Shown here piece by piece: positions 5,580-64,000 of a DNA stretch of 64,000 nt. The notes under the pieces were generated by a model. It saw nothing but the letters and a program-made list of their open reading frames with translations, searched no databases and was not told the origin of the DNA. The first letter of the stretch is position 1, and each line of letters begins with the position of its first letter. The position numbers and the translations under genes were made by a program. This DNA comes from a candidate division WOR-1 bacterium RIFOXYB2_FULL_36_35 (GTDB lineage: Bacteria > Margulisbacteria > WOR-1 > XYC2-FULL-46-14 > XYC2-FULL-37-10), in NCBI GenBank assembly GCA_001771505.1, contig MEUA01000023.1, positions 2,346-66,345 on the forward strand, in the 5' to 3' direction.

Positions 5580-5746
5580 AAAAACACCTCAACCCGTACT
5601 ACAACCCATAAAAATAATCGTACAAGCCAGCACTATGCTCACCAAAAATATAATTAAAAATAAATGTTTTGGATTTTCCATAACTTATGGTTAATGATAC
5701 CATTTAAGAGAAATTTTGCAACATTTTTATATATCCCAGAAGAATT

Positions 5747-5840
5747 GAACCCCGACTAGGAAATCGGGGTTCATACCTGGGAAAATTTCCAACACTCTTC
5801 TAGAATTCTGTTCGTCTATAAATAATCGGGGTGAAATTTC
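5747..5840 (+). repeat. Palindromic repeat element copy A, long subtype: hairpin GAACCCCGAnTAGGAAATCGGGGTTCAT + spacer with CTAGAATTCTGTTCGTCTAT + tail AATAATCGGGGT
   Basis: Near-identical to 6842..6923 and 40434..40533, and reverse-complement of 59688..59775. Confidence 0.85.
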
Positions 5841-5866
5841 CGAAATAATCATCCGAAAATAAATTA

Positions 5867-6805: not shown

Positions 6806-6841
6806 AAAAATATTCCTTATTTATTACAACATCATTACTTT

Positions 6842-6923
6842 TAACCCCGATCATTCATATCTGGGGAAATTTCCAACACTCTACTAGAATTCTGTTCGTC
6901 TATGAATAATCGGGGTTAATTTC
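6842..6923 (+). repeat. Palindromic repeat element copy B, long subtype with degenerate first hairpin
   Basis: Shares CTGGGGAAATTTCCAACACTCTACTAGAATTCTGTTCGTCTATGAATAATCGGGGTT with copy A. Confidence 0.85.
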
Positions 6924-6974
6924 TTTCAAAATATTTGAGCGTCAGTTTTTTTATAACAGGGAAGTGTTCCTCAT

Positions 6975-7644: not shown

Positions 7645-9111
7645 ATGTTAGAAAGCCATTTAAAAAAAGAACTGCAAAAAATAAAAGGTAAAAAAGTTTT
7701 GGTCTTTGGTGATCTTATGCTTGATGAACATATATGGAGTCACGTTAATCGTATAAGCCCTGAAGCCCCTGTTGTTGTTGCTGACGTTTCCAAGATTACG
7801 CATGTCCCCGGAGGATCTGGAAATGTGGCTAACAATATTTTAACTCTTGGGGGAACCCCTATCCTTGTAGGATTAATCGGCAATGACAGTTCAGGAATTA
7901 AACTTGTACAAGCTTTAAAAATTTTGGGGATAAATGAAAAATATCTTATAAAAAATTCTGAACGCCCGACAATATTAAAATCTAGGCTTATAGCCTCAGG
8001 CCAACAAATTGTTAGAGTTGACAGAGAATTAAAAGAGATTATTTCACATAAACTTTCTAAGAAAATATTGTTGAGAGCAGTTAACCAGATTCGTAAAGTT
8101 GATGCTGTAATAATTTCCGATTACGGCAAAGGGTTAACATCTAAAGAAAACTGTCAAGTAATTATAAGGGCAGCTAACAAGTATAAAAAACCTGTCCTTG
8201 TAGATCCAAAAGGGACAGATTATAAAAAATATGAAGGGGCTACAATAATAACGCCCAATCTAAAAGAAGCTGAAGCTGCTACCAACATCAAAATAAATAG
8301 TGAAAAAGGTTTATTGAAAGCAGGAGAAAAACTGCTGAAAACAATAAACTCCCCTTTTGTTTTAATTACAAGAAGTGAAAAAGGGATGTCTCTTTTTAGA
8401 AAAAAAGAAGAGCCCATTCACATCCCGGGAATTCCTCGCCAGGTTTTTGATATTACAGGAGCTGGCGATACCGTAATTGCAATGTTAGCGTTATCTTTTT
8501 CGTCAGGTATGAAAATTTCCGATGCCGTGCATTTGGCAAATGACGCGGGATCAATTAAAGTTACAAAAATCGCGACTCAACCGGTTTATTATAAAGAGCT
8601 GGAAGATTCTCTAGTAGAAAAAGATCCGGCTTCAAAAAAGATAAAAAACAGAGAAGAGTTAAAAGAGATAGTAAAACAATTAAGATCTTCAGACATGAAA
8701 ATCGTATTTACGAACGGTTGTTTTGATATTTTACATCTTGGACATGTAAGATATTTAAAAGAGGCAAAAAATTTAGGTGATGTTTTAATTGTCGGGTTAA
8801 ACAGTGATGCTTCCGTAAAAAAACTAAAAGGGTTTCCCCGTCCTTACCTACCTGAGCACGAAAGGGCTGAGATTTTAGCTTCTTTAGAAAGTGTTGATTA
8901 TGTGGTGGTGTTTAATGAAAACAGGCCCGATAATTTAATAAAAATAGTAAAACCAGCTTTTCATGTTAAGGGTGGAGATTATAAAATATCCGAACTGCCT
9001 GAAAGAGATATTGTCAAAAAGTTTGGCGGGGAAATTATAGTAATTCCGCCTGTTGAAGGCAAGTCGACGACAAATATCGTAGAAAAAATAAAATCAACAG
9101 CTGGCAATTAA
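7645..9111 (+). CDS. hldE: Bifunctional D-beta-D-heptose 7-phosphate kinase / D-beta-D-heptose 1-phosphate adenylyltransferase
   Basis: N-terminal ribokinase-like domain ('DITGAGDT'), C-terminal cytidylyltransferase ('FTNGCFDILHLGHVRYL'); 488 aa. Confidence 0.9.
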   Translation: MLESHLKKELQKIKGKKVLVFGDLMLDEHIWSHVNRISPEAPVVVADVSKITHVPGGSGNVANNILTLGGTPILVGLIGNDSSGIKLVQALKILGINEKYLIKNSERPTILKSRLIASGQQIVRVDRELKEIISHKLSKKILLRAVNQIRKVDAVIISDYGKGLTSKENCQVIIRAANKYKKPVLVDPKGTDYKKYEGATIITPNLKEAEAATNIKINSEKGLLKAGEKLLKTINSPFVLITRSEKGMSLFRKKEEPIHIPGIPRQVFDITGAGDTVIAMLALSFSSGMKISDAVHLANDAGSIKVTKIATQPVYYKELEDSLVEKDPASKKIKNREELKEIVKQLRSSDMKIVFTNGCFDILHLGHVRYLKEAKNLGDVLIVGLNSDASVKKLKGFPRPYLPEHERAEILASLESVDYVVVFNENRPDNLIKIVKPAFHVKGGDYKISELPERDIVKKFGGEIIVIPPVEGKSTTNIVEKIKSTAGN

Positions 9112-14746: not shown

Positions 14747-15163
14747 ATGGAACCATATTCAGACAAAGTAATGGATCATTTTATGAATCCCCGTAATGTG
14801 GGAGAGATTCCCGATGCCGACGGGCATGGAAAAGTTGGGAATCCAGTTTGCGGCGATATTATGGAATTGTTCATAAAAGTAAAAGAGAACATTATCACCG
14901 ATGCCAAATTCAAAACTTTTGGTTGCGGGTCAGCCATTGCTACTTCAAGTATTATGACAGAAATGGTAATAGGAAAAACCATTGAAGACGCATTAACAAT
15001 ATCAAACAAAGCGGTTGTTGAAGCATTGGGCGGCCTTCCAAAAGTAAAAATTCACTGTTCCGTCCTCGCAGAAGATGCTTTTAAACTGGCTGTCGATGAC
15101 TATTTAAAAAAGACAACGGGTAAAGGTTTACCTAATTTCAAGCCACATGAAGAAGAGGTTTAG
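14747..15163 (+). CDS. iscU: Fe-S cluster assembly scaffold (IscU/NifU N-domain)
   Basis: 138 aa; three conserved Cys (CGD...C...C) in a NifU-N pattern. Confidence 0.85.
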   Translation: MEPYSDKVMDHFMNPRNVGEIPDADGHGKVGNPVCGDIMELFIKVKENIITDAKFKTFGCGSAIATSSIMTEMVIGKTIEDALTISNKAVVEALGGLPKVKIHCSVLAEDAFKLAVDDYLKKTTGKGLPNFKPHEEEV

Positions 15164-40433: not shown

Positions 40434-40533
40434 AACCCCGATTATTCACCCCGATTAGGGAATCGGGGTTCATGCCTAAGGATTTTCTGAGCAGCCTACT
40501 AGAATTCTGTTCGTCCATGAATAATCGGGGTCA
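40434..40533 (+). repeat. Palindromic repeat element copy H, long subtype
   Basis: CAACCCCGATTATTCACCCCGATTAGGGAATCGGGGTTCAT ... CTAGAATTCTGTTCGTCCATGAATAATCGGGGTC. Confidence 0.85.
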
Positions 40534-40592
40534 ACTGACGAAAAAATTCTATAAAAGCGTTATCCGCATAAAACGCTTTTCCCATACTTACT

Positions 40593-44196: not shown

Positions 44197-45087
44197 TTAC
44201 AATTTATCCTGACCTGTGATTTTTTTATAAGCCTCAAAATATTTGTCTCTGGTTTTTAAAATAACCTCTTTGGGCAGTTGAGGAGCTGGAGGCATTTTAT
44301 TCCAATCTAACGTTTCTAAATAATCTCTTAAAAATTGTTTATCAAAACTTGGTTGTGATCTGCCAGGCTCATATTGGTCTTTTGGCCAGAAACGGGATGA
44401 ATCGGGAGTTAAAACTTCATCTATTAAAATCACCTGATTATTTAATATTCCAAATTCAAATTTTGTATCCGCGATTATTATATCTTTTGAAAGAGCATAA
44501 TTTACTGCTGTGGTGTAAAGTTCTATCGATTTTTCCTTTAAAAGGGTTGCAATATCTGTTCCTACTAGATCCACAACCTTTTTGAAATCAATCGATATAT
44601 CATGACCTTCTTCTTCTTTTGTCGTCGGAGTAAAAATAGGTTCCGATAACTTCTCTGATTCTCTAAGACCTACTGGCAATTTAATTCCGCATATTGCACG
44701 GTTTTTTTGATACTCTTTCCATCCGGATCCCGATAAATAACCACGTACAACACATTCCACGGGGATAACTTTCGATTTTTTAACAAGCATTGATCTTTTT
44801 CTTAATACGCCATATTTTTTTAATTTTTGAGGGTATTCGTCAAAATTTGAGGTCAAAACATGATTTGGAATAATGTTTTTTAAAAAATTAAACCAGAAAA
44901 CTGATATTTGAGTAAGTATTTTCCCTTTATCGGGGATGCCGTTTGGCATTATGCAATCAAACGCCGATATCCGATCAGAAGTTACAAATAACAAGTTATC
45001 TTCTAAATCAAAAATATCACGAACTTTACCGCTTTTTATTGGTCTAAAATCCGGAAGCTCAATCTTTAGGATTGTTTCTTCGTTCAT
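44197..45087 (-). CDS. purC: Phosphoribosylaminoimidazole-succinocarboxamide synthase
   Basis: 296-aa long-form SAICAR synthetase; N-terminal 'GKVRDIF' motif. Confidence 0.9.
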   Translation of the reverse strand: MNEETILKIELPDFRPIKSGKVRDIFDLEDNLLFVTSDRISAFDCIMPNGIPDKGKILTQISVFWFNFLKNIIPNHVLTSNFDEYPQKLKKYGVLRKRSMLVKKSKVIPVECVVRGYLSGSGWKEYQKNRAICGIKLPVGLRESEKLSEPIFTPTTKEEEGHDISIDFKKVVDLVGTDIATLLKEKSIELYTTAVNYALSKDIIIADTKFEFGILNNQVILIDEVLTPDSSRFWPKDQYEPGRSQPSFDKQFLRDYLETLDWNKMPPAPQLPKEVILKTRDKYFEAYKKITGQDKL

Positions 45088-45166
45088 TGTTGCAAATTAT
45101 AACATTACATATTTCTATTGCCAAGGGAAAAAAGGGGAAAAAATGAAATTATGTCTATTTCTTCGC

Positions 45167-45307
45167 GATAAATAACTATAGGGTCTGTTGCAAAATGGTC
45201 ATTCCCGTGAAAACGGGAATCCATTTTTCAGAAAACAAGATAGATCCCCGTTTTCCTGCCTGCCAGCAGGCACGGCGCGGGGATGACAAATTGCATTTCG
45301 CAACAGT
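45167..45307 (+). other. Inverted-repeat element (arms CTATAGGGTCTGTTGCAAAATG / CATTTCGCAACAGTCCCCTATAG) enclosing a 95-nt GC-rich multi-hairpin core; candidate structured ncRNA or miniature insertion
   Basis: Arms pair over ~20 bp; core has nested stems ATTCCCG/CGGGAAT, ATCCCCG/CGGGGAT, GCCTG/CAGGC, GTCAT/ATGAC; ~55% GC in a ~33% GC background; an empty-site-like copy at 59806..59847. Confidence 0.4.
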
Positions 45308-45315
45308 CCCCTATA

Positions 45316-45334
45316 GGATAATCGGGGTAAAAAC
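45316..45334 (+). repeat. Solo tail fragment of the CCCCGATT repeat family (GGATAATCGGGGTAAAAAC)
   Basis: 8 nt after the IR element; 34 nt before the start of 45368 ORF. Confidence 0.5.
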
Positions 45335-45367
45335 ATAGCCAGGGATTAAAAGGAGAAGAGAGATAAG

Positions 45368-46897
45368 ATGGTTTTAAAAAAAGTAGTCTCTTTTAATTTA
45401 GAAAGAGTTGTGGAAAAAGAATCTGCCGCTATCTTGTTATCAGAGCTTGATAAGTTAGATACTACAGATTCTACATCGCTCAACAATTTTTTTGTAAGGA
45501 TCCAAAGATTTGGATTTCCTTTTACTAGAAGTTATTTTAATAGGATGCTTGAAGGAAGAGATTTAACGCCACTTAGAAGCATGCTTCAGAGGTTAATCCC
45601 AAAACCTAAAATTCCTCAACCGACAAGGATACTTCCTTTTGATCCAAGGGATAGAGATACACAAAGAGATATCAGGCAGAAATTTATGGGTATATTAGGC
45701 GATGCAACATTTTATGATGCTATTTTAAGAAGAATTACCCCTGCTTCTATGGACAGAAAAAAAGAAACTAATTCTTTTGAAATTAACACAAAAGCTATCA
45801 TAGAAGAATTAAATAGGCAAGGTAATGATAAATTGGCTGATGCACTTAAGTATGCAGCAATATTTTTGACTCCTGATAGGGAGGATTTAAAAAGATACGT
45901 TGTTGACCATGGCCTTCTAACTGTTGAGGAACTAGATAGGAAGACCTATATAGGAAAGTGCCTTTATGAAGATTGTTTGAGAATATCAACTACAGAAGAG
46001 GCAATAAATATTATAATGACAGAGCTTTGTAATATTTTTGGAAAGAGAGAGTATGTAGAGACAATGCTATTTGCTCATAACATTAATAGCTCATTCATTA
46101 ATTTTAATTCATCTCCGATGAAAATTGCCGAACAATTTGCAACAATGGCAATCCAATCAGGCAAATTACTGAAAATACTGGAAGGATTAAAAGAAATGTA
46201 CCGGGGAAACACAGTTTTAAATAGTTTGTATACTCAATTTAAAGATTTGACTTCAGTTTCAGATTCTCAACCCCGAAGAATACTCCCTTTTGATACAAGG
46301 GATAGAGCTACTAGAATAGAAATAAGAAAAAAATTTATGGATATATTTAGCGATGAAATTTATTTCAACGCAATTTTTAGAAGATTAGCTCCACATCTCC
46401 TTGGCAGGATAGAAAGTGATGTATCAAAAGAAGTTATAGCTAACGATGTAATAACTAAATTAGAAAATGACCTGATTGTCGCGCTCAGATACACCGCAGT
46501 TTTTTTACTCCCTTACAGGCAAGACTTGAGAAATTATCTCCTAGACCACGGGATTCTTACTGAAAGTGATTTGAATCGGTCAAATGTTATAGGACAAACG
46601 TTTTATGAAAGTTGCCTTAGAATCTTAAGAGCAAATGAGGCAATAAATATTATAATGATAGAATTTCCTAATATCTTTGGAAATGAAAATACGGTTAGGC
46701 AACTAGCAGCAAAGATCGGACTTACTTTAAACTTTAACGTAAACCAAGCTCCTATGGAAGTTGCAGCAAAGTTTGCAGAAGAAGCGTGGAACCAAGATAA
46801 ATTGCCAAATTTACTTATAGAGGCAGTAAAAGAAAATCCTGACAATCAAAAGTTAGCAGATTTATCAAGACAGGTACAAAGTTTTAGATACAGATAA
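45368..46897 (+). CDS. Hypothetical protein: ~85 aa N-domain plus two tandem ~210 aa repeats
   Basis: Internal duplication (RILPFDPRDRDTQRDIRQKFM... vs RILPFDTRDRATRIEIRKKFM...); N-domain paralogous to the next gene. Confidence 0.5.
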   Translation: MVLKKVVSFNLERVVEKESAAILLSELDKLDTTDSTSLNNFFVRIQRFGFPFTRSYFNRMLEGRDLTPLRSMLQRLIPKPKIPQPTRILPFDPRDRDTQRDIRQKFMGILGDATFYDAILRRITPASMDRKKETNSFEINTKAIIEELNRQGNDKLADALKYAAIFLTPDREDLKRYVVDHGLLTVEELDRKTYIGKCLYEDCLRISTTEEAINIIMTELCNIFGKREYVETMLFAHNINSSFINFNSSPMKIAEQFATMAIQSGKLLKILEGLKEMYRGNTVLNSLYTQFKDLTSVSDSQPRRILPFDTRDRATRIEIRKKFMDIFSDEIYFNAIFRRLAPHLLGRIESDVSKEVIANDVITKLENDLIVALRYTAVFLLPYRQDLRNYLLDHGILTESDLNRSNVIGQTFYESCLRILRANEAINIIMIEFPNIFGNENTVRQLAAKIGLTLNFNVNQAPMEVAAKFAEEAWNQDKLPNLLIEAVKENPDNQKLADLSRQVQSFRYR

Positions 46898-46936
46898 TAG
46901 AACTATAAAATACCATTATTTGAGGGGATACATAGA

Positions 46937-47875
46937 ATGTTTTCAAGAAAAGTAGTCTCTTTTAATTTAGATGTTATTTCCGCAAAAAAGCCGATAACCA
47001 ATCTACTAAAGGCTATTAATACTTTAGATGTAAACGATCAAGCAAAATTTGACAGTTTATATGAGGAAATGAAAGAGTATGGATTTCCATTTACTAGATC
47101 GGCTCTTAAGAGAGTCATTTCAACCGGAGATATAAAAAGTGATGATCATCCTGTACAACAACTATTAAGAAGCCTTGCCCCTGCTAAGCCTAAAGTTGAT
47201 AAGCCTAAAAAAGGAAGCAGTGGAGCTATCGAACGTCCTCAACCTTCAGATCAAAAGTTATTACCTAGAGAGATAACAATGAATACAATATTAAAGATTG
47301 TCCTAAAATTTTGTGATAATTCCTGTACCTCATTAATTAATAAGGCAAAAGCTTCTTATATAAATGAACCTTCAAAAGATTATTTCACAAGTCCACCTCT
47401 TTTAACCGCTTCAAGAATACTAAAATTAGCCCTAAAAGAGAAAAAGCTTTTATCTTTTCTGGAAAATATCCTAAAAGACTATTCTAATAATAGAGAATTG
47501 CAAGACATTATAACCTTTGTAAAACAAAATAAAGAGATTATTTATTCCTGGGGAGAAATGGAACCAAAAGGGGATCCTTATTATTGTTTTAACGCAGATG
47601 AAATGAAAATAATACAAAATGTTTCCTTGTCTTCTTCGTTATCATCGATTTTTGGAAATGTTATGGATATAGAGGCAATTTCATTAATAATAGGAATAGA
47701 TATTGATATTTCAGAAAATGGAAGAACAAGAGTAGATAACCTTATTAGAGAAGCAATAAGAGTTGGCAAAATAAAAAAGGTTATAAGATATATAAGAGAG
47801 GTATATCCCTTTAACCCAGAACTTAAAAGCCTTGAAGCTCTGGTAGAAAATTCAAGATTATCTAGTGATATTTAA
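46937..47875 (+). CDS. Hypothetical protein, paralog of 45368..46897 (shared N-terminal domain 'KVVSFNL...GFPFTRS')
   Basis: N-terminal ~90 aa alignable to the upstream gene; K/P-rich linker; helical C-terminal region. Confidence 0.5.
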   Translation: MFSRKVVSFNLDVISAKKPITNLLKAINTLDVNDQAKFDSLYEEMKEYGFPFTRSALKRVISTGDIKSDDHPVQQLLRSLAPAKPKVDKPKKGSSGAIERPQPSDQKLLPREITMNTILKIVLKFCDNSCTSLINKAKASYINEPSKDYFTSPPLLTASRILKLALKEKKLLSFLENILKDYSNNRELQDIITFVKQNKEIIYSWGEMEPKGDPYYCFNADEMKIIQNVSLSSSLSSIFGNVMDIEAISLIIGIDIDISENGRTRVDNLIREAIRVGKIKKVIRYIREVYPFNPELKSLEALVENSRLSSDI

Positions 47876-48572
47876 TAAGTGTCAAATATAAAAAATTCGG
47901 CAGAGCTACCTGTCTCTTTATCCTATAAGGTTCTGTAATTAACCTGTAAAGCCACTCTATGTAAAGTTTTTGAACCCATTTAGGTGCCCTTTTTTTAATT
48001 CCTGAAATAACATCAAAACTCCCCCCCACCCCAACTGCAACTTTTACTCCTAACTTATCTAAATTTTTGCAGAGCCATTTTTCCTGTTTCCCCGCCCCCA
48101 AACCCGCAAATATAATATCTGATTTTGATTCTTTTATCCGAGAAAGGATTTCATCATCATTATCAAAATAACCATCATGTATACCCGCAATATTTAATGC
48201 GGGAAATTGTCTCTTTAAATTTTGAGAGGCCATGGAGACTGAAAGTTCTGTGCCACCTAAAAGGAAAACCCTCCATCCTTTTTCAGCCGCAAGCCTGCAC
48301 GAGGACAGAAGAAAATCTATTCCAGTAACACGCTCTTTTAATGGGACTTTTTTAATTCTGCTTACGACAACCATTGAGATACCGTCAGGCAAACGTAAAT
48401 CAGCTCCGTTTAATATATCAAAAAGCTCTTTGTCTGTTTGGGCCGCAACTATCATTTCCGGATTTGGGGTGACAATTAAATGAGGCTTTCCCGAGACGAT
48501 GAATTCTTCAAGCTTTTGTAAGGATTCCCACAGTGTTACATTGTCTATTTTAATGTTTGCCAGGGTTATCAT
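47862..48572 (-). CDS. WecB/TagA/CpsF-family glycosyltransferase (N-acetylmannosaminyl-type transferase)
   Basis: 236 aa; family-typical 'LVTPNPEM' and 'RVTGIDFL' regions. Confidence 0.75.
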   Translation of the reverse strand: MITLANIKIDNVTLWESLQKLEEFIVSGKPHLIVTPNPEMIVAAQTDKELFDILNGADLRLPDGISMVVVSRIKKVPLKERVTGIDFLLSSCRLAAEKGWRVFLLGGTELSVSMASQNLKRQFPALNIAGIHDGYFDNDDEILSRIKESKSDIIFAGLGAGKQEKWLCKNLDKLGVKVAVGVGGSFDVISGIKKRAPKWVQKLYIEWLYRLITEPYRIKRQVALPNFLYLTLIKYH

Positions 48573-59645: not shown

Positions 59646-59687
59646 GATAAAATTAATTATAACATATTTTAAAACATTAAAATTTAA

Positions 59688-59775
59688 CCCCGATTATTCA
59701 TAGACGAACAGAATTTTAGCAGAGTGTTGGAAATTTTCCCAGGTATGAACCCCGATTTTCTAATCGGGGTTCATA
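59688..59775 (-). repeat. Palindromic repeat element copy M, long subtype, reverse orientation
   Basis: Reverse complement matches copies A/B/H including CTAGAATTCTGTTCGTCTAT. Confidence 0.85.
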
Positions 59776-59805
59776 CTTAGATAAAGAAAAATCGGCTTTA
59801 TGGGA

Positions 59806-59847
59806 CTGTTGCAAAATGTTAAATTTCTGTGTGACATTTCGCAACAG
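59806..59847. repeat. Short hairpin copy of the CTGTTGCAAAATG/CATTTCGCAACAG inverted-repeat element (16-nt loop, no core insert)
   Basis: 12/13-bp stem; same arms as 45167..45307; 25 nt downstream of the porin-like gene stop. Confidence 0.6.
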
Positions 59848-59871
59848 GGCATTTATAGGTCTTCTGATGGT

Positions 59872-60840
59872 TTACCATTTTCCTATAAGTGATATTCTAT
59901 GTACATTTTCCATACTTAGAGACGTTTGGCCAACATACGCATAATCCAGTTGAGTGGTAAAATATTCATTGTTTTTTGCTGAAAATCCAATCCCGCCCGT
60001 AAAGGATGAGGTTTCCAGCCAGCCCATTCTTAGCGCTAAAAGATTATTTTTCCATTCATAACCAAACGACAGTTCTGCAGGATATTTTCGGGATATTTTC
60101 TGAGAAAGATCAAACGCAAAAATAGATCCTTCAGGTAAAATGTTTAAATTTTCTAAAGCTATTCCCAGTTTTAATTTGGGGATGCTTTTTTCTGTTGTGC
60201 CTGTCCCCCATTTTTGTTCGTTTAAAAGATCTTCTAGTGTAAAGCCTATTTTTCCTATATTTTTACTATCGCTTATTAATTTATAAAGAAGTCCGGGCGT
60301 TACAGAAAATCCAGTAGCTTGCCCCTGGTTTACCGATGTCATATCAGACGTTAAATACTTGGCTGTTAATCCAACGCCAAAGCTGTTTGTTAATGGCAAT
60401 CCGTAAGACAAAAGATAAACATTACTAAAATAGGAAAAAATATTGGTAGTTATCACTTCATTAAAGGCGTCAGTCGTCGTCGTTTGTGTAATATCTCCCA
60501 AAGAAATTTGTATCCATGAAAGGCCCAGCGCGCCTTTTAAAAAAGGTGTTACATAGCTTATATAATAGTGATCCGCATCTGTGGACATTCGTGTTTGCAT
60601 TGATTGTAATTCGCTTGTTGTAATAAACGATAATCCTGCCGGATTATAATAAGAGGCATCAGAGTTGTCAGAAATTGCAGTAAAAGCGCATCCCATCCCA
60701 AGAGGCCGTGCGCCGACTTTTGCCGACAACACATCGATGTCCACGCCTCCCACTTCCGCCACAGACCCAACCGTTAACAGTGTACAGTTTACAGTGTACA
60801 GTAAAAACAAAAAGACAAAATACTTTAAAAATAATTTCAT
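59872..60840 (-). CDS. PorV/PorQ-family-like (FadL-fold) outer-membrane beta-barrel, second paralog
   Basis: 'AKVGARPLGMGCAFTAISDNSDASYYNPAGL' N-terminal motif; C-terminal aromatic; directly downstream of the large CTD-bearing protein. Confidence 0.55.
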   Translation of the reverse strand: MKLFLKYFVFLFLLYTVNCTLLTVGSVAEVGGVDIDVLSAKVGARPLGMGCAFTAISDNSDASYYNPAGLSFITTSELQSMQTRMSTDADHYYISYVTPFLKGALGLSWIQISLGDITQTTTTDAFNEVITTNIFSYFSNVYLLSYGLPLTNSFGVGLTAKYLTSDMTSVNQGQATGFSVTPGLLYKLISDSKNIGKIGFTLEDLLNEQKWGTGTTEKSIPKLKLGIALENLNILPEGSIFAFDLSQKISRKYPAELSFGYEWKNNLLALRMGWLETSSFTGGIGFSAKNNEYFTTQLDYAYVGQTSLSMENVHRISLIGKW

Positions 60841-60960
60841 AAAACAAAACCCCTTTTTATGTTTACAGTTTACTGTTTACCGTGTACAGTAAAAACACAA
60901 ATACAAAAAAACTTGCAAACAAATTTTATTGATTTACTGTAAACTGTACACTCTCTTTAT

Positions 60961-63900
60961 TTACTTGAGCAGCGCAATTTTCCCTCTTCCCGACACTGAT
61001 TGACCATTTAAGGTTGCTAGTACTTCAAACGGATAAATCCCGTTTATAACCATATCTCCTCTTGCGTTGCGACCGTCCCAAGGAACATCATTATACTTTT
61101 GCCAAATATTTGAAGCTTCTCCATATGGCAATCCGTCTAGTTCGACAACAAGCCTGCCTGTAATATCATAAATTCTGATACAAACATCATCGACATCCTT
61201 TCCAAGTTTGTATCTAATTTTTGTGCTTTCTTTGTTAGGATTAAACGGATTTGGATAATTTGTAATACCAGCCAATGTTAATGGGGGATCAACTTCAAAA
61301 GACCGGATATCAGAAGAAGCTTCTGTTGTTGTATTGGAGTCTGACACAACTTTCCAATACCATATCCCGCGAGAAAGGCCCTCATCAAATTCATGAATAG
61401 AGTAAGCAATTATAGGATCAGAAGTATTAATAGGAGTAGCCTCTGTTTGCGTAATAATTTTATCAAACGATCTTGAAGATATTTCAAGCAGGTTTGGCAT
61501 TTGGCTTAAAATCAATTTATAATTTTTTCTCCCTTTAATCCCCTGCCATTTGAAAGTAGGGCGAAGGGTTGTAACTATTGCACCGTCGTCAGGCGCAAGT
61601 AGAATTGGCTTTGTATTTTGCGCCAAAGCTTCGATAGATGAGATGAGTTTTACGTTATTTAAAGATGATGCTGTTACTGTCCCGTTAACGGAAGCAAAGT
61701 TTGATGGGATTTTTTGGAAGTAGATTTGATTTGCTCCGCTTCTTGTATCTTGCCATGATATGTAAGCATTGTTATATTGATCAACACAAATTGCTGGATT
61801 ATATCCTGACTGTCCAATCAAAATGGATGGAGAATTATTTCTTTTATAATAAATATTACCATCGCTTGCCCAAACTGAATGTTGCCCTGATGAAGTTGGG
61901 CCTGTTGTATAAGAATCTACTGTCAGAGGGGATGATGTAGCAGCTTCTTCTATGTTATCTTCATATTCGGGAGGACAAGTTTTTTGATATTCAAACAATT
62001 TAAAATCACTATATTCAATTCCTAAAGAAGCATAAGAAGTAGCAGCACTAGAACTGTACGCATCTTTTATAGAAATATAAAAAGTGTATTCCCCCTTGCT
62101 TAAAGAAACAGTTTCGTTTAAATTGTAAGAAGAAGTAGTCATATCTCCTGTCTCCCAAATGTTATTGTATTGATTATAAGAATAGAAAACCCCATTCACT
62201 AGTGAATTATTTCCCTGAACAAAAGCATAAGAAAATGCTGCATAAAGATTTTTTTCATATACATTTATCCCAGCAGAATTTTTTATGATATACCAAACTT
62301 CTCCACATTGAGGGGGAACCATTCCTACCTCCAGATAACCACTCATATTTAATTTGATTTGCTGGTCAGAATCAATATAAACAGTTAAGCTTTTATCGAT
62401 AAAAAACTCAGAAAATGAAAGGTTAGAAAAACTTTCTGTTTTTGATTGAATATCATTTCCATTTATCCAACTTAAAATTAAATTATTTCCACTTATTGTT
62501 AGAGAAGGACTCTCTCCAACTTCAATATACTGATCATCCTGTAAACTTGTGTCACAAGTCGTATTGCTCGAAAAATTTCCTACACTATCACTTGCCGTTA
62601 TCTTTAAGCGATAATTTCCTTCGTTGACATAATCTCCCGCGTTATTCATTCCTGTCCAATTAATAGAATAACTTGGATAACTTCCTGAAACAGGTAAATC
62701 TTTTATGAGTGTCCCGTCTGTTGTCTTTTCGATCCGTGCCGTTACTGCACCTATTCCAGAACCACCGCTATTATTTACACTAAAGCTCAACGATAATGAA
62801 TTTAAATATGGATTAAAAGTTTTATCCTCTGGCGGCGTAATACTCGGCGCCGTAATATCCCTCCAATAGTCCTTTTGCGTTGATTGAATATTCCCCGCCT
62901 CATCCCATCCTTTTACATACAAGGTTCTCATTCCCTCCCCGGGATGAGAGGTAGTTCCTGTAGCCGAAGTATTGCATCCTGTTGAATCGTCTGTCGGCAT
63001 ACTATCCCAACTCCATTTAAAACCTTTATAGCTTAAATTATCTGCCAATGAAACTGTGATAGCATTGTTTCCACTATACCAAACGTCCGGGGCTTGCCCT
63101 CCAAATGAGATCGTAGGAGCAGTAACATCTCTTTTATAGACTCTCGACTCTTCATATTTATTACCCGCCCAATCCCATGCTTTAAGATAAAGAGTCCTTT
63201 CTCCCTCCCCTGGATGATTATTTGTCCCTGTGGTTGATAAAATACACTCTGACGTATCATCTGAGGGAGGTGTATCCCAATTCCATTTAAAACCTTTTAA
63301 ATTAATATCGCTCAAATTTATATTTATCGCATTGTTCCCTGTATACCAAGTATTAGCCGCCTGTCCGCTCCATAAAACATCAACATTATCTGTATCTAAA
63401 ATAACGAAAGAAGAATACTCACCATAATTCCCTGCATTATCAACAAATTGCACATAAACTCGCTTCTCTCCATCGCCCGCCGTCAAATTCCACGACTTGG
63501 TAGAAGCTAAACTCTCCCAGTTATTCCAATTTGTGCCATCATTACTAAATCTCATCGTGTCTTCTATTCCGCTTAACATATCCGAATAGGTTAATGCAAG
63601 CGTAACCGAAGAAGAATTAATGTAATACTTGCCGCTATTGTAATTGGCAGAAGAAAATGTAACTTCTCCTGAAGGCTCTGTCCTGTCAACAATCGCTTCT
63701 CCCGCTACCTCAACATAATTTTCTGCAACATCCTTCACGTAAATTTTATAGGTATATTTTCCATCCTTATCTATCCCCTGGTTGCTCCACACATTGCTGT
63801 AAGAAGCATTGGAGGGCAGAGTTGCTGTTGATTGCAAACTTCCTGTCGCAACCCCATCGTTTGAAATATCGATATCCACTTCAACTGTGTTTAGATTATC

Positions 63901-64000
63901 ATTCACTGAATATGAAAGAAGGGTAGAATCCTTCACCCCTGAACCGTCTGGAGAAAAATAATACTCGCTTAAAATATTTTCAGAAACAGAAGGGAGAGTG
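60961..64000 (-). CDS. Very large secreted multi-domain (Ig-like/adhesin-like) protein with T9SS type-A C-terminal sorting domain; N-terminus truncated by the window edge
   Basis: Frame stays open from the annotated GTG (63936) to position 64000; internally repeated ~90-aa modules ('GFKWNWD..PSDD..HPGEG.RTLY.K.WD.AGN'); C-terminus 'YPNPFNPNKESTKIRY...IRIYDITGRLVVEL...WDGRNARGDMVINGIY'. Confidence 0.75.
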   Translation of the reverse strand, partial: TLPSVSENILSEYYFSPDGSGVKDSTLLSYSVNDNLNTVEVDIDISNDGVATGSLQSTATLPSNASYSNVWSNQGIDKDGKYTYKIYVKDVAENYVEVAGEAIVDRTEPSGEVTFSSANYNSGKYYINSSSVTLALTYSDMLSGIEDTMRFSNDGTNWNNWESLASTKSWNLTAGDGEKRVYVQFVDNAGNYGEYSSFVILDTDNVDVLWSGQAANTWYTGNNAININLSDINLKGFKWNWDTPPSDDTSECILSTTGTNNHPGEGERTLYLKAWDWAGNKYEESRVYKRDVTAPTISFGGQAPDVWYSGNNAITVSLADNLSYKGFKWSWDSMPTDDSTGCNTSATGTTSHPGEGMRTLYVKGWDEAGNIQSTQKDYWRDITAPSITPPEDKTFNPYLNSLSLSFSVNNSGGSGIGAVTARIEKTTDGTLIKDLPVSGSYPSYSINWTGMNNAGDYVNEGNYRLKITASDSVGNFSSNTTCDTSLQDDQYIEVGESPSLTISGNNLILSWINGNDIQSKTESFSNLSFSEFFIDKSLTVYIDSDQQIKLNMSGYLEVGMVPPQCGEVWYIIKNSAGINVYEKNLYAAFSYAFVQGNNSLVNGVFYSYNQYNNIWETGDMTTSSYNLNETVSLSKGEYTFYISIKDAYSSSAATSYASLGIEYSDFKLFEYQKTCPPEYEDNIEEAATSSPLTVDSYTTGPTSSGQHSVWASDGNIYYKRNNSPSILIGQSGYNPAICVDQYNNAYISWQDTRSGANQIYFQKIPSNFASVNGTVTASSLNNVKLISSIEALAQNTKPILLAPDDGAIVTTLRPTFKWQGIKGRKNYKLILSQMPNLLEISSRSFDKIITQTEATPINTSDPIIAYSIHEFDEGLSRGIWYWKVVSDSNTTTEASSDIRSFEVDPPLTLAGITNYPNPFNPNKESTKIRYKLGKDVDDVCIRIYDITGRLVVELDGLPYGEASNIWQKYNDVPWDGRNARGDMVINGIYPFEVLATLNGQSVSGRGKIALLK

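Follow-up and report, generated by a model that had tools for sequence, protein, structure and literature searches.

A probable composite miniature transposon with a paired Ssn-related hairpin core in a candidate division WOR-1 genome

The stretch analysed here, 64,000 nucleotides of contig MEUA01000023.1 (assembly GCA_001771505.1; hereafter the window), comes from a Rifle aquifer bacterium of candidate division WOR-1 (Saganbacteria). Between purC (44197-45087, minus strand) and a gene for a 509-aa protein with an EAD1 (effector-associated) domain (45368-46897, plus strand) lies a divergent intergenic region of 280 bp, which holds the element described here, 52 nt upstream of the 509-aa gene. 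An earlier note on this DNA had described it as an inverted-repeat hairpin with a GC-rich core, and had considered it a candidate structured RNA or a tiny insertion. We consider it likely that the element is a composite MITE (miniature inverted-repeat transposable element) whose terminal inverted repeats (TIRs) enclose a pair of Ssn-related motif (SRM) hairpins. This occurrence is referred to as copy A, and it is made up as follows.

45176..45180, no strand: left target-site duplication CTATA of copy A, repeated after the right TIR
45181..45197, plus strand: left TIR, GGGTCTGTTGCAAAATG, the 5' arm of the earlier note, pairing with 45294-45310
45198..45224, plus strand: left SRM hairpin, GTCATTCCCGT-GAAA-ACGGGAATCCAT, from the covariance model and the SRM pattern
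45225..45242, no strand: AT-rich spacer between the SRM hairpins, with 2 substitutions in the version of copy B
45243..45287, minus strand (forward on the minus strand): right SRM hairpin, GTCATCCCCG...CGGGGATC, with an enlarged loop of 27 nt, from its counterpart in copy B
45255..45275, no strand: GC-rich mini-palindrome of 21 nt, CCTGCCTGCCAGCAGGCACGG, in the right SRM loop, absent from copy B in the alignment
45288..45293, no strand: linker AAATTG from the core to the right TIR, from the comparison with copies B and C
45294..45310, minus strand: right TIR, reverse complement GGGACTGTTGCGAAATG, containing the inverted arm motif
45311..45315, no strand: right target-site duplication CTATA of copy A, the same as 45176-45180
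45316..45328, no strand: fragment GGATAATCGGGGT of the host CCCCGAT repeat, outside the element and likely its target region, copy B being inserted at almost the corresponding point of a complete host repeat

The arm motif CTGTTGCRAAATG occurs four times in the window, where 0.21 occurrences are expected by chance and none of 100 shuffles reaches four. The occurrences form two inverted pairs (45185-45197/45294-45306 and 59806-59818/59835-59847), in agreement with the observation that the arms are present twice as hairpins. The short pair (59806-59847) is the simple 13-bp stem with a 16-nt loop that had been reported, with one A.C mismatch. For the long pair, the stem continues outward through GGG.CTG and CTATAG and spans 45176-45316. 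The outer limits of copy A, including the duplications, are 45176-45315; the element first placed at 45167..45307 is real, but that position was shifted about 9 nt to the left of the true limits. Likewise, the long pair does have the longer stem claimed for it (about 20 bp), but part of that length is the target duplication CTATA itself, which extends the apparent stem because CTATAG is a palindrome.

The core enclosed by the arms (45198-45287) is 90 nt long and, as noticed earlier, GC-rich in an AT-rich genome: its GC content is 53% (51% with the linker to 45293 counted), compared with 34.9% for the window and 31% for the remainder of the intergenic region. All the sub-helices named at the time are present, including ATTCCCG-TGAAAA-CGGGAAT and ATCCCCG...CGGGGAT, the latter enclosing GCCTGCCAGCAGGC. 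The fold prediction proposed as a check gave a structure far more stable than shuffled sequences on both strands. The energies predicted for RNA are -71.9 kcal/mol on the plus strand and -76.5 kcal/mol on the minus strand (z = -7.6 and -8.5; none of 200 shuffles was equally good), and as DNA the corresponding z values are -6.1 and -7.5. Open reading frames (ORFs) crossing the element are only 45-47 aa long and overlie the palindrome.

The contig was extended past the window using the proteins from the window ends, so that approximately 107 kb of genome was examined in all; the last 14 kb of the window are identical to contig METU01000020.1 of a metagenome-assembled genome (MAG; GCA_001772385.1). 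Three copies of the element are present. Copy A measures 130 bp (45181-45310) and is flanked as CTATA/GGGTCTG...CAGTCCC/CTATA. Copy B, of 119 bp, lies 1.0-1.1 kb to the left of window position 1 (contig L262, 13772-13890; also in L263 and L264), between an SLT-domain gene and a DUF6498 gene, inside a host CCCCGAT repeat and with flanks ATGAA. Copy C, of 50 bp (59802-59851, plus strand), has TIRs around a 16-nt loop but lacks the SRM core, and is flanked by TTTAT at 59797-59801 and 59852-59856 (TTTAT/GGGACTG...CAGGGCA/TTTAT). It corresponds to the short arm pair, and lies about 20 nt downstream of the stop codon of a 322-aa gene (59872-60840, minus strand) and 30 nt from a host 94-nt repeat.

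A 17-bp TIR is common to A, B (left copy at L262 13772-13788) and C (left copy at 59802-59818), with 2 mismatches in 17 positions in A. Direct flanks of 5 bp are found in all three copies (CTATA, ATGAA and TTTAT), and random positions have such flanks in about 0.2% of cases each. Shared TIRs together with 5-bp flanks in three copies indicate that the arms are 17-bp TIRs and that the whole unit is a miniature transposon. Copies A and B, at unrelated loci, are 91% identical over the aligned bases, with two indels: 21 extra nt in A (45255-45275, in the loop of the right hairpin) and 10 extra nt in the linker of B. One matched change affects both arms, CAAAATG/CATTTCG in A being CATAATG/CATTACG in B, and an A-versus-G difference between left and right at TIR position 12 of 17 is kept in A, B and C.

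At the insertion site of copy B, a host repeat of about 94 nt is split exactly between ...ATGAA and TAATCGGGGT, with ATGAA on both sides of the copy, and four uninterrupted paralogs align to this site (window 5738-5852, 6827-6936, 40436-40552 and 59672-59782). Copy B and these paralogs represent one filled site and four empty sites, with a 5-bp target duplication. The host repeat belongs to a very abundant intergenic family based on AACCCCGATTAT..ATAATCGGGGTT hairpins, which includes the composite unit of about 94 nt (5746-5839, 6833-6934, 40443-40549 and 59680-59775) and at least 20 shorter units (e.g. at 9108, 15352, 27760, 54713, 54866 and 57041). A scan of a genome collection gave only 7 matches to the CCCCGAT repeat, one of them in a different WOR-1 MAG. 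All three MITE copies lie in, or at most 30 nt from, such repeats. For copy A this is the immediately adjoining fragment GGATAATCGGGGT, previously recognized as a piece of another repeat family.

Comparison of the copies also locates the core. In copy B the core abuts the left TIR directly and is followed by a 16-nt linker, AAATTACAAAAACTGT, and the right TIR; the loop of copy C, TTAAATTTCTGTGTGA, is also 16 nt long and shares AAATT...CTGT with this linker. The resemblance between the loop of C and the linker of B makes the core a clean presence/absence difference at the left arm-loop junction. We infer that a C-like element acquired the SRM pair and that transposition of this composite gave rise to A and B, although loss of the core from a composite would give the same picture as a gain, so that the direction is not settled. 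The suggestion of a foreign insertion into a pre-existing hairpin holds in that the core is present or absent at this junction. The hairpin itself is mobile, however, since all three copies have TIRs as their arms and are bordered by 5-bp duplications. Similarly, A and B versus C do form a filled and empty pair, as had been proposed, but in A and B arms and core have transposed together.

The identity of the core emerged from a full-text literature search with a related sequence, GTCATTCCCGCG, which led to a study of the Ssn nucleases (PMC11893778, Nat Commun 2025). For the hairpin-forming Neisseria repeats, the sequence of dRS3 is ATTCCC-N8-GGGAAT and that of NTS, a longer form of it, is CGTCATTCCCGCGMAVGCGGGAATCYRG (PMC11893778). 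SsnA, a GIY-YIG protein of 94 aa, binds and cuts NTS/dRS3 hairpins in single-stranded DNA only, a few nt upstream of the hairpin; the ssn genes, small single-domain GIY-YIG genes (cd10448), are flanked across many phyla by SRM hairpins in the arrangement NTS-ssnA-NTS, with the pattern HGTCWYN(0-2)YYVSBRHN(0-5)WNVSBRGN(0-2)RNCYNB (PMC11893778). The left hairpin of copy A, GGTCATTCCCGTGAAAACGGGAATCCAT, fits dRS3 exactly and fits the SRM pattern at all positions but the first (G instead of H). It differs from the NTS consensus by 4 substitutions, among them the replacement of C-G by T-A in the pair that closes the loop, and scores 40.3 bits (E 4.5e-10) with a covariance model based on 43 independent hairpins. 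The right hairpin of A, when read on the minus strand, appears to be of the same kind with an enlarged loop, and it is assigned to SRM because of its counterpart in copy B: the hairpins of B score 35.9 and 44.2 bits, and the plain short-loop counterpart of the right hairpin of A is the one scoring 44.2. Within the window, the left 25-nt hairpin has no second match at up to 3 mismatches, and neither a regular-expression scan nor the covariance model found another SRM-type hairpin outside coding sequence; a weak covariance-model match at 14807-14848 falls within an IscU-like coding sequence and was dismissed.

Outside this genome, the exact 25-mer GTCATTCCCGTGAAAACGGGAATCC is found in at least 120 metagenome contigs (L125-L244) with 30-64% GC and from many habitats, and a loose hairpin pattern in at least 120 viral contigs, often as plus/minus pairs 50-80 bp apart. 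Among the metagenome matches listed, an inverted partner (ending GGNRTGAC) lies within 160 nt in 75 of 131 occurrences of the 25-mer, the pairs having a median length of 77 nt (range 54-176 nt) and a variable spacer. The partner stems in these matches come in 13 variants with compensatory changes, and 58 of the 75 are perfect over 7 bp. The stem of copy A, ATCCCCG/CGGGGAT, is seen in 6 of these 58, and in 9 of the 58 the loop measures 24-50 nt and frequently contains a small hairpin like that of copy A (nested hairpins in L146, L185, L220, L222 and L237). When 43 partners were aligned, both sides varied in 5 of the 8 stem pairs, and the observed covariation score was reached by none of 500 shuffles; because sequences with perfect stems had been chosen for this alignment, the information lies in the diversity and not in the percentage paired. 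Conservation of the 25-mer over such a range of GC contents suggests either that a conserved binding protein constrains it strongly or that it is often transferred horizontally.

In several contigs the hairpins bracket a gene. SRM(+)-GIY-YIG-SRM(-) cassettes, with a gene of about 95-100 aa (PF01541), are present in metagenome contigs L187 (536-901), L195 (122-518) and L204 (767-1181), and four viral contigs (L008, L056, L083 and L119) contain such a cassette as well. Taken together, the SRM match, the metagenome pairs and the GIY-YIG cassettes indicate that the core of copies A and B is a gene-less inverted pair of SRM (NTS/dRS3-type) hairpins. As a side observation, GC-rich mini-palindromes of the form GCCTGCC-N-GGCAGGC, one of which is window 45255-45275, recur in SRM loops and as free copies (L150 at 7591 and 8395, L177 at 3569, L230 at 4852 and L111 at 4215), and may be a separate small repeat family.

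The nesting of an SRM pair within inverted repeats is not restricted to the WOR-1 element. Inverted repeats scoring at least 10 flank 18 of the 70 metagenome pairs with enough flanking sequence, compared with 3% of permuted controls; this result was obtained by unrestricted local alignment, a first version with restricted offsets having been negative. About half of the 18 arm-flanked pairs belong to one family, TGATGGnnTCGTAAAAAGTC...GACTTTTTACGAnnCCATCA (arms TGATGG..TCGTAAAAAGTC; L142, L149, L185, L188, L219, L220, L226, L228, L230, L236 and L244), whose arms enclose an SRM pair in all loci but L149 position 467, where the insert is without SRM ends. In 7 of 9 cases the layout is that of the WOR-1 element, the core abutting one arm and a linker of 15-18 nt leading to the other. 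Exact 4-bp direct flanks are present in 5 of 11 distinct copies of this family by a fixed-boundary test, which replaced an automated detection of duplications with a tolerance of +/-2 nt, by which displaced controls scored in 30% of cases. The arms of other pairs are unique, and some of these pairs have long duplications (L126, 9 bp; L170, 8 bp); in L196 the arms start GGGTCTGT, resembling the WOR-1 element, and TATTTA is found at either side. Elements bounded by TIRs thus have an SRM pair as their core repeatedly, and two or more unrelated arm families are involved. Such nesting was not found described in PMC11893778 or by sequence searches of the literature, the coverage of which is incomplete, and a literature search with the arm sequences returned nothing relevant. 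Although the parts (a MITE, and SRM/NTS/dRS3 hairpins) are already known, their combination and its recurrence in unrelated arm families appear to be new.

According to the reading that we favor, the WOR-1 element would be a non-coding MITE of 130 bp, with imperfect 17-bp TIRs and AT-rich 5-bp target-site duplications, mobilized in trans by a transposase of the DDE type, which would make staggered cuts of 5 bp and is not encoded in the window. The SRM pair would have been inserted at the left arm-loop junction of a short element made up of TIRs alone, such as copy C, and would have been a passenger since. In single-stranded DNA, each strand would present one forward SRM, expected to be nicked a few nt upstream if the host possesses a cognate Ssn nuclease. 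That the hairpins are active nuclease targets in the WOR-1 host is possible, at somewhat less than an even chance. Any effects on the neighborhood would be incidental. On the plus strand, the left hairpin and the CCATTTTT after it resemble an intrinsic terminator, so that hairpin and T-run could terminate plus-strand transcription, and the element stands between the divergent purC and EAD1 genes.

Several observations weigh against this composite MITE. Its TIRs are short, at 17 bp, and, as CTATAG is palindromic, the duplication of CTATA in copy A would be ambiguous if taken alone. The right hairpin of A scores only 8.3 bits (E 5.6), owing to the 21-nt insertion in its loop. The window contains no transposase whose ends match these TIRs, and a TIR scan of viral contigs gave single matches at chance level only; an ssn/GIY-YIG gene was not found either, by tblastn and motif searches of the window or in the flanking contigs L258 and L262 (approximately 107 kb). 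In addition, four independent assemblies of the locus are identical, with no presence/absence polymorphism that would indicate recent mobility.

The nested helices could instead be the functional fold of a structured non-coding RNA, that is, a riboswitch-like leader of purC or the EAD1 gene, or a small RNA (sRNA). The fold is indeed very stable, and no sigma-70-like promoter was found in the 52 nt between the element and the 509-aa gene. Moreover, an SRM-like hairpin, GATTCCCGCCTACGCGGGAATGAC, lies within the Northern probe for the Francisella sRNA FtrB (PMC3091763), indicating that some copies of the SRM repeat are transcribed within sRNAs. However, the stability is shared about equally by both strands, as expected of a DNA palindrome. 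The element has no Rfam match at gathering thresholds, at which the whole window was scanned, and at E <= 10 the sole overlap is a chance-level match to rdlD (17.7 bits versus a gathering score of 50). The same two-hairpin unit is present in copy B, in a different gene context and inside another repeat, and the left hairpin is a repeat in at least 120 unrelated contigs, with variable spacer and partner. A leader of purC is further argued against by the purC promoter-like site, which lies downstream of the element. The proposal of a riboswitch- or ribozyme-like leader or an sRNA is consequently not supported, the core being a DNA repeat found in hundreds of unrelated contexts, and we regard an RNA function as very unlikely.

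A different division of roles would make the SRM pair the mobile unit, inserting by a mechanism of its own (Ssn-linked, or similar to that of IS200/IS605 or REPINs) into single-stranded loops, with the arms as a favored target. This would account for the filled and empty pair of A and B versus C, with the core exactly at the arm-loop junction, for the same layout in an unrelated arm family and for inverted repeats flanking SRM pairs above chance. SRM loops themselves hold nested mini-hairpins, and the SRM-ssn-SRM cassettes resemble insertion sequences, as discussed in PMC11893778, where a transposition activity of Ssn is nevertheless described as not known. Against it, A and B have arms, spacer and linker in common, while a separate 5-bp duplication lies outside the arms of each, from which it follows that at least the last moves of A and B were made by the whole unit. 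Copy C duplicated its target without any core, and both SRM pairs in the approximately 107 kb lie inside one arm family. For the WOR-1 element we consider this distinctly unlikely. The broader notion that SRM pairs move by themselves and home to the 5' stem-loop junction of MITEs and other palindromic elements, so that nested hairpins arise across many bacterial phyla, seems rather doubtful to us; if true, it would provide the first evidence of the way in which NTS/SRM repeats spread, and would link the single-strand nuclease Ssn to insertion targeted at hairpin loops. Finally, the unit could be a REPIN, a REP pair mobilized by a RAYT (Y1, IS200/IS605-like) transposase. REPINs were reportedly described by Bertels and Rainey in 2011 as two inverted short hairpins separated by a spacer, and the WOR-1 unit likewise has two inverted short hairpins and a spacer and folds as a whole into a long hairpin. 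Yet its hairpins match the SRM family, the associated gene of which encodes a GIY-YIG nuclease and not RAYT, and it has target-site duplications, which REPINs are not known to make, so that this origin is barely tenable, although no search aimed at a RAYT gene was made.

A gene for a WecG-type glycosyltransferase directly precedes purC on the same strand in three relatives (L255, L256 and L257); in the window, WecG (47862-48572, minus strand) and purC are 2.8 kb apart (45088-47861), separated by two EAD1 paralogs of 509 and 312 aa on the opposite strand. Judged by this gene order, the WecG-purC adjacency is ancestral. With WecG and purC adjacent in the relatives and copy A at the purC-side edge, the element lies at the border of a lineage-specific insertion; a second TIR was not found at the other border of the 2.8-kb insertion. 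An orthologous empty site was not found, as the nearest PurC relatives are at most 72% identical and their intergenic DNA is not comparable. The purC promoter-like site mentioned above, a strong one, is located between the element and purC:

45124-45096, minus strand: purC promoter-like site TTGGCA-17-TGnTATAAT, agreeing with the consensus at 11/12 positions and with an extended -10 TG

Two other observations concern the region to the right. Just upstream of the 322-aa gene next to copy C, at 60773-60925, a sequence of about 65 nt with many units resembling GTTTACAGTGTACAGT is present twice in tandem. An ORF of more than 3,300 aa runs off the right end of the window (L258 1-9880, including window 60961-63936), and the 991-aa ORF in the window is its C-terminal part.

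These results remove a false lead, in that the GC-rich multi-stem core is a DNA repeat and not a regulatory RNA, and they extend the Ssn-related hairpin family to a Saganbacteria (WOR-1) genome. They also point to SRM hairpins as the cargo of miniature transposons, which could be a simple route of spread without, or in addition to, the Ssn nuclease.

Among known systems, REPINs, REP-BIMEs and IS200/IS605 elements are alike in being hairpin pairs that act in single-stranded form and resemble a miniature derivative of a hairpin-flanked gene, but the enzyme associated with SRM hairpins is of the GIY-YIG rather than the Y1/HUH type. Members of the Tn3 family and their miniature derivatives (TIMEs) make AT-rich 5-bp duplications and have inverted repeats of approximately 38-40 bp (PMC4133298). 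The WOR-1 element is similarly small, non-coding and TIR-bounded, with several copies and AT-rich 5-bp duplications; in contrast, its TIRs are of 17 bp and not approximately 38-40 bp, its core comes from another repeat family and no related transposon has been identified. The similarity of its TIR to the Tn3 end, GGGGTCTGA, is limited to the start, GGG(T/A)CTG, and is a lead only.

Neisseria intergenic mosaic elements (NIMEs), which PMC11893778 mentions, are repeat units flanked by dRS3. They form arrays and are not known to have outer TIRs or target duplications. The WOR-1 element shares with them the inverted dRS3-type hairpins, the short spacer, the intergenic location and the proximity to variable genes, but it is a single pair nested inside a transposon. 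With the Ssn/NTS/dRS3 systems the asymmetric flanks GTCA...TCC are shared, and the identical 25-mer brackets small GIY-YIG genes elsewhere, whereas the hairpins of the WOR-1 element form a gene-less inverted pair inside a transposon bounded by TIRs and target-site duplications. In contrast to the hundreds of copies of the Neisseria repeats, two pairs are seen here in approximately 107 kb, and the host is not a proteobacterium but a WOR-1/Saganbacteria MAG.

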